Assembly: GCF_018350175.1 (NCBI RefSeq)
Contig: NC_058368.1
Location: 100,380,001-100,444,000, forward strand
Source of the DNA: Felis catus
Lineage: Eukaryota
Length of the DNA: 64,000 nucleotides
Direction of reading: 5' to 3'
Below the pieces are notes generated by a model. It was not told the DNA's origin. It did not search any database and saw nothing but the letters and a program-made list of their open reading frames with translations. Every line of letters starts with the position of its first letter. The first letter of the stretch is position 1. Shown piece after piece: positions 31,761 through 60,817 of the stretch. The translations under genes were made by a program, and so were the position numbers.

Positions 31761-33099
31761 GCATTACTGTTGTGTTATTACCATTATTCTTTTTCATTAT
31801 TATTATTGTTACTAGTATCATGAGAAACGCCAGGGTACCTATTTGACTGACTACAGTTAACACTGAAGTAATAGATATTTAGGGAAGAGCAGCAATGTGG
31901 TGTGGGCACTCTTAGACGGCTGTGTGTCTGAATAGCCAACTAGAGATGGGGGTTTAGTAGGAAGTGTCAGCACCCCCAAGCGTCACCTCCCCTGGCGGAA
32001 GCTTTCTTACCTAACTGCTGCCATAAATCTCTTACATGTACCCTTCCTGAAAGAGCTAGTGTGTACCAAATACGGATCTTACTGTTACACAAAGTATCTG
32101 CGAATTTCATATCTCTCTGGTATATTTTGCTCAGGCCAGTGTTGTCCTAGTATAATGTAGATACAGAGAGTATGTAGTTCGCGTCCCTCACCAGAAGCTC
32201 TGATTTGTAGCATCTGATAATTTGCATGATGTGTAAATACTCTCTCTCCCTCTCCCAATGCCTAATGCCAAGCTCCCAACATGAAGCCACTGAACACAGA
32301 GTTGGGAAGAGGTGTGCATCCACAGTTGGTGAAGCCGAGGCAGGCCGGGTCCAGTACTCCTGAGGTAGCCCGAGGCATATGGAGCAACGGTATGGAGTGG
32401 AATGATTGGCAGCAGAATTTGAGTAAATACAGTCGAGGGAAAGTAGCTTGTCCCCAGAATGGAGCATTGTGATATATTTAGCCAACAGAATTCATCCAGA
32501 AAGTGAATTAATGCCAGATTACTTGAGCAGTGTGTTTCGGTGCCATTTTTCTGTCCTTGCTCTGTCACTCTCCAACCATACTTAGGACAGAAATTTTTTC
32601 CTAGCCTTCTGTGCTCAGGGTAGTGGGGAGGTCCCCTCATCACTTCCCAATTGTCAGAGTGTTTCTTTAATCAGTAGTTTAGAGATTTGGTCCTGGACGT
32701 AATGCCTGTGTTTCTAAAAGTGTCGTCTTCCCTCCCTGCCTTCCTCTCTTCCGTCTTTATTCCCTTCCCTACTTCCTTTGAGAGTATTTTCTGTCATCTC
32801 TTTTGTAATGTCAGCAACAACGCCATGAGGTCATCAGAATCAATAATCGTATTCCTGCTTTGTTAAAATGGTAAAGATGCTAGAAAACTGATGTGCTTCA
32901 TGAACGTGACTTGGTACCGTCACTGGTAACTTGTCATTTTCTTACTTGGAAATCCTCACTACTATTCAGATACGCTACCTCTTTGATTTGGAGAGGGTCA
33001 TTTCAATCTCTGGCCCCCTTTCCTTTGCTAACACGTATTTAATTTTCTTCTCTCCCGTGGTTGTTGAAAACTATACCACATCGTATCCAGGAAATTGCA

Positions 33100-33215
33100 T
33101 TACAGTAGCTATAAATAGATTTCTGAGAATTTTTAATTAGGTGGTGATACCTAGAACTTCTGCAATCTCATTATATCCCCGGAGATGATAAAACAAATTC
33201 CTCTTGGGAAGCTGT
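33100..33215 (+). promoter_or_regulatory. Candidate ancV1R promoter motif cluster (TATA/MEF2-like, homeodomain and O/E-EBF-like sites)
   Basis: CTATAAATAG 33109-33118; TTAATTAG ~33133-33140; CTCATTA 33167-33173 next to TCCCCGGAGA 33176-33185; TCCCAAGAGG on the minus strand within 33198-33210. Motif matches only. Confidence 0.45.
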
Positions 33216-33430
33216 TGTGTTTTCTGCCACCCATCGCTGGAGCAAGCCGGACTCTGTCACAGACCATCTCAGAATTGTCCGGATGATACTAGTTCGTGTT
33301 CTAACCTTAATCAGTTTTGTCAACATAGTGGATCAAAAAGCCCAGGTCTCCTCACTAAAAAGTCCTCCAAATGCCTAAGGACTTCAGCTTTGAGGAGGAG
33401 ACATTTGAGAGGACCAGGTTGCTATTTACC

Positions 33431-34402
33431 ATGAAGCCATCTGCGGACGTCCTTGAGATCACCGCTTGTGCCGTTCTGATCCTTGTCAGCGTTGTCGGAA
33501 ACGTGTGTTTATTTTTTTCTACAAGGAGATGTAGCCCTGGCCGGTTACAGACATCCCATCTTCTGATGTTCAGCCTTCTATTCGTCCACCTCGTTAAAAA
33601 CGCGGTGGTGAATGTCATGAAAATTGTTTATTCTTCTGGTTTCGTGTTGGATTCAGCTGGCTGCAGAGTCCTGCACTTCACGGCAAGCCTGACCACTTCC
33701 CTGGCCATCTGGTTCATGTTACACTTTGCCTTGTCCTACCACCGGAAGCTTTACCAGACTGTCCACCCCTCGAGTGAGGCTGCCAATCTGGAGAATCAGA
33801 AGCCTTCTTTGAAGGTGGTGTCCGTGCTTTGGGTGGCTGGTGTGGCAGTATACGTCCCCGTTTTGCTTTATACCAGAAAATCCGAACACCGGAGTGCAGG
33901 AAATGGTACAGACCCCTTGTCTCCCAACAGGATTTATGTGGATTGTCTCACAGACTTTGGAAACAAGCAGGTAGCCTTTTACTATGGGAAAGTATTTTTG
34001 GTTCTGATTGATACTCTTCCTTTAGCCACCTTAGTCTTTGTCTGCTTCTGGATGTCTTTCCTCCTCTTGGAAAGAAAGAAAATGACATATGGCGACATCT
34101 GGATTGGAGATGATGATTCAGAAACTGAAATCCTTAGAGGGGCCAAGTTCAGTATTTTATTAATGTGGCTGATCACTCCACTTTGGATTTCTCACTTTAT
34201 CTTAGTCTATTTCTTAAAAGACTTGGCAGCCTGTGTCTTTTTTCCAGCTGTTCTCACAGCACTCTCTTCAGGTTTCTCGGCTCTCAGTCCTTTCCCGCTT
34301 ATGTTGGTGAATTACAAAATGAAGTTGGTGTCCCTCTGTGGTCCCAAAGAGGAAGAGCCCACACCACAGCCTGCAAAGGTTACCCTTCCTCCATATGCTT
34401 AA
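33431..34402 (+). CDS. ancV1R: Intronless 7TM vomeronasal type-1-like receptor (ancient V1R), 323 aa from ATG 33431 or 343 aa from ATG 33371, nested in SNCAIP intron 1
   Basis: Longest ORF in the window, uninterrupted, with seven hydrophobic segments. Numbering from ATG 33371: GN in TM1, DSAGC with Cys98 at the top of TM3, NGT sequon (Asn178) and Cys192 in ECL2, E..RGAK..I before TM6, SPF in TM7, no DRY or NPxxY, very short N-terminus. ATG 33431 is in ACCATG context, whereas ATG 33371 has C at -3. Position in the SNCAIP first intron matches the reported ancV1R locus. Confidence 0.93.
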   Translation: MKPSADVLEITACAVLILVSVVGNVCLFFSTRRCSPGRLQTSHLLMFSLLFVHLVKNAVVNVMKIVYSSGFVLDSAGCRVLHFTASLTTSLAIWFMLHFALSYHRKLYQTVHPSSEAANLENQKPSLKVVSVLWVAGVAVYVPVLLYTRKSEHRSAGNGTDPLSPNRIYVDCLTDFGNKQVAFYYGKVFLVLIDTLPLATLVFVCFWMSFLLLERKKMTYGDIWIGDDDSETEILRGAKFSILLMWLITPLWISHFILVYFLKDLAACVFFPAVLTALSSGFSALSPFPLMLVNYKMKLVSLCGPKEEEPTPQPAKVTLPPYA

Positions 34403-34418
34403 TGGAAAAGAACTCAGT

Positions 34419-34611
34419 TGTTTTTTGTTTTTTGTTTTTATTACGTTTTTATTTTGATTCCAGTATAGTTAACGTATAGTGTTGTACTGCTTTCAGCTGT
34501 ACTGTGTAGTGATTCAGCATTCCATACATCACCCGGTGCTCATCACAAGTGCCGTCCTTAATCGCCATCATCTATTTCCCCCACCCACTTCCCCTCTGGT
34601 ATCCATCGGTT
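34419..34611 (-). mobile_element. Carnivore L1 extreme 3' end, directly after the ancV1R stop
   Basis: T-rich tail followed by TATAGTTAACGTATAGTGTT...CCATACATCACCCGGTGCTCATCACAAGTG. Confidence 0.8.
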
Positions 34612-34626
34612 TAAAACACTCGGTTT

Positions 34627-34826
34627 TGGGGCGCCTGGTTGGCTCAGTCCATTAGGCGTCTGAGGTTCATGATCTTACCGTTCGTGTGTTGGGGCTCCGC
34701 GTTGGGCTCTGTGCTCACAGAGCGGAACCTCCTTGGGATCCTTTTTCTCCCTCTTCCTGCCCCTCCCCCACTCTCTCTTACTCTCTGAAAATAAGTTAAA
34801 AAACATTTTTAAAAATCTTTAAAAAA
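34627..34826 (+). mobile_element. CanSINE
   Basis: TSD AAAACACTC(G/A)GTTTT. Confidence 0.9.
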
Positions 34827-35182
34827 GCTAAAACACTCAGTTTTAATAGCGGGGAAGCAGGCCCCAGTCCTAGAAGGTGCAGCCGAGGCTTCCCTAGCCC
34901 TCATCCTAGACAGTTTCTGCAAGGGGGCTTAAAGACCCCCTTCTCCCCGAAATCAGAGCTCTGAGGGAAATGGTAAAAAGATCCACAAACACTTACTTAT
35001 TAGAAGCTGAAGAAAAATAGGCATCCTGACATTTGTCCTTTGGGACAAGGCCAAGATTTTGAATATAGAAATTCTAGAGTGACTCAACAAAGAAACATAG
35101 TCTGGAAATAAACTCATTGTAACAATTAATATATAAAGTATGTACTCTCTGCAAGGTGTTGCATTCAAAAACAGCATACTGT

Positions 35183-35420
35183 TGGGGTGCCTGGGTGGCT
35201 CCTTTCGTTAAATGTCTAACTTTGGCTCAGGTCATGATCTCAAGGTTGGTGGGTTCGAGCCCTACATCAGGCTCTGTGCTGACATCTCAGAGCCTGGAGC
35301 CTGCTTCACATTCTGTGTCTCCCTCTCTCTCTGCCCCTCCCCTGCTCACACTCTGTCTCTCTCTCTCAAAAATAAATAAACGTTAAAAATGTTTTTAATA
35401 AAAAAAAACAAAAACAAAAA
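35183..35420 (+). mobile_element. CanSINE
   Basis: TSD-like AAAACAGCATACTGTT / AAAACGGCATATTATT. Confidence 0.92.
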
Positions 35421-36353
35421 CGGCATATTATTGACACTGAGGATGATACTTCCTACCGGAATTCCTGAAGGTGCTTGACAGTAATCTCGTGTTTTCATCT
35501 CGTGTTTTTCTTAACATGCTTTGCCACGTATTGAAAATCATTAGTTAAGCATGCAGCGTTCAGTTTTTGCACTTTTAGTCATAGTACCTCATCTCAGCAG
35601 GAAACAGACTGTGTTCATTTTCCTTTCTCTAAGTGTCTTTAGTAAATTAGGGATAGATGAAAGCATTGGATCAAAGAATTAGTGCTTGCCAAATCATAGT
35701 CTGCGTATATGCACAGACATGCAAATATTTGGTTGCTGAGCCTACCATGCTTGCTTAATACATATCAGAGAGTACTCTTCTTCTGGAAAAAAAAAAACAT
35801 TTATTTTATGGAGAGTTTATTTCCTCTTTTGGTTATTAAATTGGTACATTCTAATTGGAAGAAGTGATAAAATCTTCCCAATAATCTGATTTCTGGACTT
35901 GGAGTCAATAAAAATAAGCATATTATAAACACAATTAAAAATACATGGCCAGGATTTTATTTTTCGCAGTTAGCCAGGATAGCCATTTGGACTGCTTCAG
36001 ATTCAATGAGTAATTATTTTAAATATCTTCTAATGCATACATATTGTATAAGCATGGAACTTTACACTAATTCTCATTAGATTTTTACATTTTTTTCATT
36101 CTCCTCCTTTATTAGTAGACCTGGGATTTATAATACTGTAGTTCTAGTGACTGGATATCCCTATATTGAGATTCTTGCTCTAAAAAGGCTGCGTCTAAAA
36201 TTATAAACCTGGATCTCATTAACAGGAGAAACTTAGAACATCTTTGTGGCCATAAAGTGCTATGGAGAAGAGAAATTTTAAAGTAACCAAGGCCTAAATT
36301 TTGTAGAGTTTCATAGGCCGGCATCTGTCCCTTGTATAGCAGTGGGAATTAAA

Positions 36354-47077: not shown

Positions 47078-47124
47078 AGCTTTTATAAACATTTGACTTT
47101 ACTCAAAATGTGCAAAGAAGAATA
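47078..47124 (+). other. SNCAIP: 5' UTR portion of the SNCAIP start-codon exon, containing the uORF MCKEE* (47108-47125)
   Basis: Lies between the acceptor AG (47076-47077) and the main ATG; reads ATG TGC AAA GAA GAA TAA. Confidence 0.85.
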
Positions 47125-47181
47125 ATGGAAGCCCCTGAATACCTGGATTTGGATGAAATTGACTTCAGTGATGACATATCT
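47125..47181 (+). CDS. SNCAIP: Synphilin-1, first coding exon (exon 47078-47181; coding part MEAPEYLDLDEIDFSDDIS)
   Basis: Polypyrimidine tract and CAG acceptor ending at 47077; ATG in ATAATGG context at 47125; GTAAGT donor at 47182, phase 0. The peptide matches the known synphilin-1 N-terminus. Confidence 0.96.
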
Positions 47182-48402
47182 GTAAGTCATACTTCTTGCA
47201 AACAATGCTTCAGGAGGTTCTGCCTTTACCTGTAATCTGCGGATCCTGAACTCTTCCAATCGCGTTTAGCAGTTGATGGCAGATGGAATGTGGCTTTGGG
47301 GTCCCCTGGACCAAGAAGTGAATCTCACTTAATTGTGTGTATGGCATGGTGTGTGTGGGGGCGGGGTGGGAAAGGCATATGACCTCATTGAGCTCCCCCC
47401 TTCCTAATTGTTGTCGAAATTATTCACCGAGAAAATTTATAAAATGCCTGCAGAGAGCACATGATCAACCCTATCAGTGATAATTCCCTTTATAGGACTG
47501 GCTTTACCGCAGCCAGCTTTCTCTGGAGCTCACAAGGACACGACGGCCAAGCTGTTCACTGATGAACAAACAGTAAGAGGAATCCTTCCAGGCACTGTAG
47601 GTGTCAAAGCACAGGTTGGATGCTATCGGGGAATACTGAGAGTCATGTGTTGATGAGGACTGGGCCAGCTCCTCTCTGAGGCCCTGTTTAATCCTGTGAA
47701 GCTCTGAGCTGATGAACTTCTTCATTGTCAGGAGCCACCACCTTCTTGCTGCCTCCAGCCTATCTCACCGTGGCTCTGAGGGGTCCTCTGTACTCACCCT
47801 GCCTAGAAGTGACTGTGACTTGTCTCAGGCCACACGGTCATTTCTGCCTCCGAGACCAGCCAGCAGCCTTGTTGGCTGCTCACAACCCCAGATAAACCGG
47901 CTCTCAGAATATGTGATGAGAAGGTTGCTCTTTCTAAACTAGCCATATAACTTTTCTTCCCAGGACCTCCGTGGTCACAATTGCTGACCCTACTTTTCAT
48001 CACTGTCTCAGGGCATGGAGCTTTGGGTCACCACTAGAAATGGTGTCAAAAAAGATAAGCTTCTTTTCACACACCTCTGGCAAAGTTATTTCTCTACTCC
48101 GCTATTCGCTATTCACTTTGAAGTAAAACTTGCATACTGTATGCAAGGATTGGATTCCTCGGGTGAGTTTGATGAATGATCTTCTTTATACAACCTTGGA
48201 TGATTCTTGGTGTGCCAGGGAAATGTGAATGCTGCCTCTCCCTATTTTAGCTTCCAGACAATCTTTATTAATCCTCATTGAGACCAATGCAAAGTGAGTT
48301 TCTTCCTTCCCACCTTATCTTTCTGTCTCTTTCTCTCTTTTTTAAGTTACTATACTTAAAAGTGTTCAGAACATGGTTCTGTTATAGCATTGACCTTGAA
48401 GT

Positions 48403-60300: not shown

Positions 60301-60744
60301 GAATATCAGCACAGGTGAGGCTCCTGGCTACCCTGGGCGCTGCAGGAAGCTGGGTGCTTCTCCCCTTGGCCCTTCACAGTCGGACTCAAAACGCATGTAT
60401 TCCAGACACCTTCCGGAAATTCCTCAAGGCCAGAAAATTCTTCCATCTTCCACAAGTCGCAGAAGCAACAAGAGAGAGAATGTCTGCCGGATACACTTTG
60501 CATGTTAAAGCAGGGGTGCATAGCCCTTCTTGATGTACATCTGCTTAGATGTATACAGATAGAGCTTGGGTCACTGCCAGATCACTGAGGAGCCCGTTGA
60601 GGATAAAATTCGACTTTTCTGGATCTACATGTTGTACTCAAGTGTCACTTCTTGTGCTTTGCTTTCTCTGGCCTCTTGAATGAATGCAATGCTCTTGTTT
60701 TAAGTTGTTGTTTTATTCCCTTTCTCCTCCGGCTTCCCATCCAG

Positions 60745-60817
60745 TACTCGGTGACGTCGCTCAAGACCATCCCCGAACTGTGCCGAAGATGTGATGCACA
60801 AAGCGAAGACAGATCAG
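60745..60817 (+). CDS. SNCAIP: Synphilin-1, second coding exon (73 nt, YSVTSLKTIPELCRRCDAQSEDRS plus 1 nt)
   Basis: Pyrimidine tract and CCAG acceptor ending at 60744; CAG|GTAGGT donor at 60818. Continues in frame from the previous exon and matches synphilin-1 residues 20-43. The gene continues beyond the window. Confidence 0.96.

Follow-up and report, generated by a model that had tools for sequence, protein, structure and literature searches.

An intact felid ancV1R receptor gene in an intron of SNCAIP

The stretch of DNA analysed here, referred to as the window, comprises 64,000 nucleotides of the Felis catus genome (C1:100380001-100444000, + strand, in an assembly of 2.43 Gb). It carries a gene for a putative seven-helix receptor, attributed below to ancV1R (ancient vomeronasal 1 receptor), in an intron of SNCAIP, the synphilin-1 gene. 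The receptor is encoded by an uninterrupted open reading frame (ORF) at 33371..34402 on the + strand, consisting of 343 codons and a TAA stop (ORF listing with the standard code and ATG starts). A first-pass annotation made from the letters of the DNA had described a single-exon ORF at these positions, and the listing bears this out. Three ORFs of 80 codons or more, this one included, overlap 32500..35500. An in-frame TAA at 33356 lies 15 nt before the first ATG of the receptor ORF, and by rough arithmetic a random stop-free run of 343 codons has a probability of (61/64)^343, or about 1e-7. Two parts are distinguished:

33431..34402, + strand: probable ancV1R coding sequence, a single exon of 323 codons and TAA, 972 bp (from the starts of orthologs and the published length)
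33371..33430, + strand: 20-codon in-frame extension from the first ATG, either 5′ untranslated region (UTR) or an alternative start (from the ORF listing)

A word-indexed search with the window protein retrieved 70 database proteins at E <= 0.001. The best match is a protein of Lynx pardinus (99% identity, three residues different), and about 50 placental, marsupial and monotreme proteins, nearly all of 323 residues, show 56-82% identity. Orthologous ORFs, which the first-pass annotation had proposed to look for in other mammals, are thus present there. Amphibian proteins show 45-51% identity in the same search, and across the ortholog set identities out to amphibians, lungfish, coelacanth and bichir are 34-50%. 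One match, from Carlito (76% identity), bears the name "ancient vomeronasal 1 receptor". At E <= 0.001 a HMMER profile search of 1.84 billion representatives yielded 40 proteins, and for ten of these E was below 1e-30. Its full-length matches include proteins of axolotl, lizard, lungfish, coelacanth and bichir, and the lizard representative belongs to the same 90% cluster as the Anolis carolinensis entry, a curated record that likewise bears this name.

These relationships were examined in a maximum-likelihood tree of 54 rows and 315 columns (IQ-TREE, LG+C20+F+G4). The window protein falls inside a 14-row clade with support of 100/100, which includes six mammals, the lizard, three amphibians, lungfish, coelacanth and bichir. 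The clade contains the curated Anolis ancV1R cluster, and the ancV1R identity proposed in the first-pass annotation is supported in this way. The order within it mirrors the species tree: placentals, marsupial, monotreme, lizard and amphibians, then lungfish, coelacanth and bichir. A tree with ancV1R, V1R, ORA and T2R sequences had also been suggested as a check; here the window protein lies outside the canonical V1R clade of the cat (100/99), outside the T2R clade (100/100) and outside the class-A G-protein-coupled receptors (GPCRs).

For ancV1R, the founding paper is said, in work that cites it, to be that of Suzuki et al. 2018. According to the available parts of a later survey, every ancV1R sequence is situated within SNCAIP, in its first intron, and the gene is present as a single copy in most species (Zhang & Nikaido 2020, PMC7290294). 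Intact mammalian copies are mostly 972 bp long; all sensory neurons of the vomeronasal organ express the gene alongside canonical V1Rs, and it has been inactivated in catarrhines, cetaceans, manatee, many bats and some others (PMC7290294). In the bichir, ancV1R is co-expressed with TRPC2, Gi2 and Go and with both V1Rs and V2Rs (PMC8822828). The first-pass annotation had named its location in the first SNCAIP intron, its single copy, its broad expression across vomeronasal neurons and its loss in certain lineages, all of which are in print (PMC7290294, PMC8822828). The window sequence agrees with this description: 33431..34402 is intronless and measures 972 bp including the stop codon, and, compared by eye, it is identical to the row labelled "Cat" over the first 216 nt shown in the supplementary alignment of PMC7290294. 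Table S1 of the same 2020 paper gives the cat gene as intact, in keeping with the earlier opinion that this is a published gene and not a new family. On its sequence, then, the window gene is the felid ortholog of ancV1R, already known and published. The literature found under "ancV1R" in a full-text search, at the level of its listing, included none devoted to felids in particular.

The surroundings of the receptor gene comprise the following features:

47080..47181, + strand: SNCAIP (synphilin-1) start-codon exon, coding part 47125..47181 = MEAPEYLDLDEIDFSDDIS (from translation and flanks; exon start approximate)
60745..60817 (about), + strand: the SNCAIP coding exon that follows, YSVTSLKTIPELCRRCDAQSEDRS..., its acceptor cag and its donor gtaggt (from tblastn and boundaries read from the sequence)
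C1:100460970-100461854 and C1:100463702-100463911, + strand: later SNCAIP exons, beyond the window (from the match to P0068)
34440..34612, strand not assigned: high-copy interspersed repeat, about 40 bp past the receptor stop (from a genome search with 34440..34700)

A polypyrimidine tract with an AG (about 47077/47079) lies in front of the start-codon exon, and a gtaagt donor follows it at 47182. We take the peptide MEAPEYLDLDEIDFSDDIS to be the N-terminus of synphilin-1, and this is supported because its frame runs on into the tool-matched exon at 60745 (YSVTSLK...). There, residues 180-204 of P0068, a Cricetulus griseus protein with the NCBI name Synphilin-1, match 60742..60816 with 92% identity over 25 residues (tblastn). 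Since the start-codon exon bears an acceptor it is an internal exon, and the receptor ORF therefore lies within the intron upstream of it. From the last base of the ORF to the start of the SNCAIP coding sequence at 47125 there are 12,723 bp on the same strand, as the figure of about 12.7 kb given in the first-pass annotation had implied. That annotation had also spoken of the first SNCAIP intron. The intron does lie upstream of the start-codon exon, but its being the first is not confirmed from the window and is taken from PMC7290294. No CpG island occurs within the 64-kb window; in the 100 kb upstream there is a single one, C1:100344201-100346000 (length 1.8 kb, GC 0.68, CpG observed/expected 0.92), about 34-36 kb before the window start, about 69 kb before the ORF and about 81 kb before the start-codon exon. 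Our guess is that this island could be the SNCAIP promoter and exon 1.

The gene is present as a single copy. A genome search with the receptor protein returned its own locus (E = 2e-215) and the next match had E = 5.3, which upholds the earlier statement that the window has no second receptor copy. The surroundings had been called repeat-rich, correctly so: a query of 34440..34700 gave 3840 first-look candidates, and the 40 of them that were scored comprised its own locus and 39 copies of 79-84% identity, covering query bases 1 to 173 approximately and distributed over many contigs and both strands. With this repeat starting some 40 bp past the stop codon, a 3′ UTR that exceeds this length would enter repeat sequence. 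The first AATAAA downstream of the ORF is at 35107. On the opposite strand, an ORF of 87 residues (33355-33618) overlaps the 5′ end of the receptor; nothing indicates that it is more than a by-product of the sense frame.

The protein carries Cys98 and Cys192, GN at position 43, SPF at position 306 and one N-glycosylation sequon, NGT, at position 178 (numbering of the 343-residue form). A motif check of the same form showed neither DRY/ERY nor NPxxY. The first-pass annotation had presented these characters as V1R hallmarks. All of them are present and conserved, but they are not diagnostic of V1Rs: the Pfam V1R model misses the protein, and neither profiles nor tree can tell whether it is nearer to V1Rs or to T2Rs. 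Across 53 orthologs, 41 columns are invariant, including G23, N24, C78 and C172, the threonine of the N-x-T sequon (T160) and P287.

Seven hydrophobic helices had likewise been proposed, and Kyte-Doolittle peaks and two AlphaFold models agree on seven long helices. With the 53 orthologs alone AlphaFold2 reached a mean predicted local distance difference test score (pLDDT) of 47.4, too poor for a fold search; with an 89-row alignment to which distant relatives had been added, pLDDT was 77.0 and the predicted template modelling score (pTM) 0.77. Helices in the latter model extend over residues 5-34, 41-68, 75-111, 123-147, 179-219, 229-260 and 271-293; the second extracellular loop forms a short hairpin carrying Cys172 and the C-terminus is disordered. 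Foldseek gave at least 500 matches in the PDB. Among the matches listed all are GPCRs, mostly peptide-binding members of class A such as NTSR1 and the apelin, galanin and endothelin B receptors, and their TM-scores are 0.53-0.70 (normalised to model length) at 10-19% identity. An embedding search gave 7tm_1 clusters only, among the named matches, and a sequence search of solved structures gave weak class-A matches (the best to 5-HT2A, E = 0.0022), which are uninformative on family. The match of the predicted model shows the class of fold without discriminating between families. Sequence and model together show the predicted product to be a 323-residue seven-helix GPCR of the V1R/ORA-T2R supergroup.

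Its position within this supergroup was addressed with profiles and with the tree. At E <= 10 the Pfam V1R model (PF03402) does not match the window protein; the TAS2R model does not match it either, and 7tm_1 is its sole Pfam match. Of the 53 orthologs, 26 match 7tm_1 at E <= 0.01, nine match TAS2R and three match V1R. Scans of the cat genome identified 115 places with the V1R model and 56 with the TAS2R model (PF05296), and the ORF is in neither set; most of the cat V1R loci are on C39, further ones being on C13, on C47 and at other places of C1, none of them within the window. We also compared an ancV1R profile by hhalign with sets of 11 canonical V1Rs and 10 T2Rs from the cat genome. The comparison of ancV1R with V1R gave E = 0.002 (probability 14%), that of ancV1R with T2R E = 6.6e-4 (27%), and that of V1R with T2R E = 5.7e-6 (85%).

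In the tree, ancV1R, V1R (95/87 with a ray protein), T2R and three ORA4-like proteins of lampreys form a four-way fork without resolution. The fork lies in a 41-row group, supported at 96/83, that excludes the class-A receptors (outside at 100/98). The stems are long, with 1.33 changes per column for ancV1R and 1.8 for T2R. In approximately unbiased (AU) tests, joining ancV1R to the V1Rs costs 3.82 log-likelihood units (p = 0.092), joining it to the T2Rs 0.68 (p = 0.48) and joining it to a group of long-loop and bichir receptors 2.82 (p = 0.25); the groups were named after the tree had been seen, and no alternative grouping is rejected. The published phylogeny places ancV1R in the V1R family, with teleost V1R5 and V1R6 as closest relatives (PMC7290294); labelled teleost V1R5/V1R6 sequences are absent from the set used here. 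Calling ancV1R a V1R rests on that phylogeny (PMC7290294), the present tree giving a fork instead. Membership of the ancV1R orthogroup and of the V1R/T2R supergroup can be assigned firmly from the sequence.

The profile searches also retrieved more distant proteins. Among them are proteins named ORA4-like (lamprey), ORA1 (lungfish and caecilian) and V1R-like (ray), which pass the Pfam V1R cut-off. Apart from orthologs, the ancV1R profile matches best, at E = 1e-15 to 1e-6, two kinds of protein (P0081, P0084-P0087, P0089, P0094 and P0095): unnamed receptors from amphibians and bowfin, which have 428-550 residues and a long third intracellular loop, and proteins of about 300 residues from bichir, sturgeon and coelacanth. 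Together the two kinds form a 100/99 clade outside the group of V1R, T2R and ancV1R, which could possibly be of the V1R5/V1R6 type. Two isolated open frames outside the main V1R and T2R clusters of the cat were noted as well, one of 329 residues with a weak match to the TAS2R model (C1:22615677-22616435, - strand) and one of 307 residues with split matches to the V1R model (C22:39622208-39623029, + strand).

Taken together, 33431..34402 on the + strand is almost certainly the felid ancV1R, an intact, single-exon, single-copy gene nested in the sense orientation in SNCAIP, within the intron that precedes the start-codon exon. Several points weigh against this description or parts of it. Besides having no match to Pfam V1R, the protein scores 28.2 bits (343 residues) or 28.9 bits (323 residues) against 7tm_1, below the cut-off of 30.5. 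The designation "intron 1" depends on the published work, as SNCAIP exon 1 was not located and only a candidate CpG island lies upstream. Five RNA-labelled rows holding the ORF stretch are gut or mammal metatranscriptome contigs. Cells that express ancV1R outside the nose are described as unidentified, and functions beyond chemosensation have been suggested (PMC13113109). Finally, the in-frame ATG at 33371 would yield 343 residues, and the carnivore product could be this longer form of a real and constrained gene, with an additional acidic extracellular N-terminus of 20 residues, MPKDFSFEEETFERTRLLFT. The frame is open from 33371, just downstream of the stop codon at 33356, and P0002 (88% identity, 343 residues) keeps the same ATG and a similar 20-residue extension. 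It is the sole other protein to do so: most mammalian orthologs have 323 residues and begin at the second methionine (MKPSAD..., 33431), and the N-terminal extensions in camel and sloth models are shorter and differ in length and start position. The context of the first ATG (ccaaATGc) is weak, with C at -3 and +4, while that of the second (taccATGa) has A at -3, the transcription start may be downstream of 33371, and the felid rows of the published alignment begin at ATGAAGCCATCT, which corresponds to window position 33431 (PMC7290294). We therefore consider the longer product unlikely and take the conserved coding sequence of 972 bp and 323 residues from 33431 as the one that is probably used; the extent given in the first-pass annotation is correct for the open frame of 343 codons but not for the conserved start.

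A gene that is open merely for lack of time, after selection was relaxed in the felid lineage, is very improbable. Such relics have been proposed in true seals and some antelopes: certain carnivorans have ancV1Rs that look intact and show an omega close to 1 or higher (1.28 in three true seals) and another feliform, the fossa, has a pseudogene according to Table S1 (PMC7290294). The cat protein itself departs from the consensus at three otherwise conserved positions, F43H, L58A and K79R. However, three departures among the 135 columns which are at least 90% conserved is the family median, 33 of the 53 ortholog rows departing at as many or more. Seven felid rows of Table S1 were examined (Felis catus, Felis nigripes, Acinonyx jubatus, Lynx pardinus, Panthera onca, P. 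pardus and P. tigris) and each is scored intact, and the available parts of PMC7290294, which give an omega of about 0.4 for most branches of the mammals, name no felid as having an elevated value. In the published alignment the rows of cat, cheetah, lynx, puma and tiger vary at seven sites within the first 72 codons, all of them synonymous as judged by eye (PMC7290294). From intactness and conservation we infer, with good support, that the cat copy is functional. There is a vanishingly small chance that no gene exists and the frame arose at random or from a repeat. It is intronic and adjoins a high-copy repeat, but it is single-copy, its identity to proteins of placentals, marsupials and a monotreme and out to amphibians, lungfish, coelacanth and bichir is that reported above, and the predicted fold is that of a seven-helix receptor; a chance ORF was accordingly rejected on homolog matches, copy number and conservation among orthologs. 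Canonical V1R or T2R identity was likewise rejected, on tree placement, and that of an ordinary class-A orphan receptor was rejected since the sequence lies outside class A in the tree even though the fold matches. It is possible, although we think it improbable, that ancV1R is not a V1R in the strict sense and forms a branch of its own, just as ancient, within the V1R/T2R supergroup, its name being misleading as to its relatives and possibly its ligands. This would agree with the missing Pfam V1R match and the mixed Pfam matches of the orthologs, with hhalign scores to V1R and to T2R that are both weaker than that between V1R and T2R, with the four-way fork, and with the cost of joining ancV1R to V1Rs relative to T2Rs. 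Yet the AU tests reject none of the post hoc groupings, the profile scores may reflect evolutionary rate rather than ancestry given the long ancV1R stem, and the closest relatives in the published phylogeny, teleost V1R5 and V1R6 (PMC7290294), are not labelled in the tree. The question bears on classification and not on the identity of the window gene.

Felids show flehmen behaviour. The presence of an intact ancV1R in the cat genome fits with a working vomeronasal organ. If the cat gene acts as its orthologs do in other species, ancV1R would be made in essentially all vomeronasal sensory neurons beside the one canonical V1R or V2R chosen by each neuron, would have a general rather than ligand-specific role in pheromone detection, and would use for its signalling the Gi2/Go and TRPC2 pathway, whose components are co-expressed with it. 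A mouse ancV1R knockout reportedly impairs pheromone detection (Kondo et al. 2024, as cited elsewhere). More speculatively, and with rather low confidence, the ancV1R lineage may be its own branch of the V1R/T2R supergroup, as old as the bony vertebrates and perhaps nearest to the long-loop amphibian and bowfin receptors; in each vomeronasal neuron its product would then serve the chosen receptor as a general partner and would not be a pheromone receptor of its own. Among the sequencing runs searched for the ORF stretch, no vomeronasal run was identified; the metatranscriptome contigs mentioned above cannot separate mRNA from intronic pre-mRNA or DNA, and four raw-read RNA runs under the same species label are of unspecified tissue.

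ancV1R is used in genomes as a marker that the vomeronasal organ works. In this respect the cat copy adds nothing new, since the cat and six other felids were scored intact in 2020 (PMC7290294), and the practical value of the analysis lies in annotation, because public pipelines give its orthologs many unrelated names and at times join the gene with SNCAIP or with a copy of RPL10A. The hamster "Synphilin-1" (P0068) is a chimeric model whose first 180 residues are receptor and whose remainder derives from SNCAIP exons; in the searches of window and genome it also matches the receptor ORF. In the dog, where ancV1R is "intact" in Table S1 (PMC7290294), the UniProt entry "60S ribosomal protein L10a" (P0065) joins the N-terminal half of RPL10A to the C-terminal half of the receptor. 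NCBI names for the orthologs are inconsistent and include neuropeptide Y receptor type 1-like and type 2-like, taste receptor type 2 member 1-like and 14-like, GPR176, B2 bradykinin receptor-like, rhodopsin-like and olfactory receptor class A-like 1 or 4; among the orthologs found only those of Anolis and Carlito are called ancient vomeronasal 1 receptor. As the Pfam V1R model misses the gene, screens for vomeronasal receptors which are based on family profiles will overlook ancV1R.

The window protein may finally be compared with the known receptor groups. With the class-A peptide GPCRs it shares its best structural matches, to NTSR1, the apelin receptor and galanin receptor 1 (TM-score 0.6-0.7), whereas in sequence these receptors stand apart in the tree, and the window protein remains below the 7tm_1 cut-off and has neither DRY nor NPxxY. 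T2Rs (TAS2R, PF05296) belong to the same supergroup and are of the same size, and their profile-profile score to ancV1R is slightly better than that of V1Rs, but they constitute a clade of their own and their model does not match the window protein. Canonical mammalian V1Rs resemble it in being intronless proteins of about 300 residues with seven helices, a short N-terminus and GN in the first helix, in having no DRY or NPxxY, and in sharing with it the supported group that excludes class-A receptors. They differ in sequence (12-16% identity to the window protein) and in organization, being multi-copy and clustered, whereas the window gene is single-copy and inside another gene. They are expressed one per neuron and ancV1R in all vomeronasal neurons (PMC7290294, PMC8822828). 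Published ancV1R is the closest known system: the window gene is the same in its 972-bp single exon, in its strand and position in SNCAIP, in its single copy and in its clade. Nothing of substance differs, and the window adds only an upstream in-frame ATG, for a form of 343 residues, that is not used in the published sequences.

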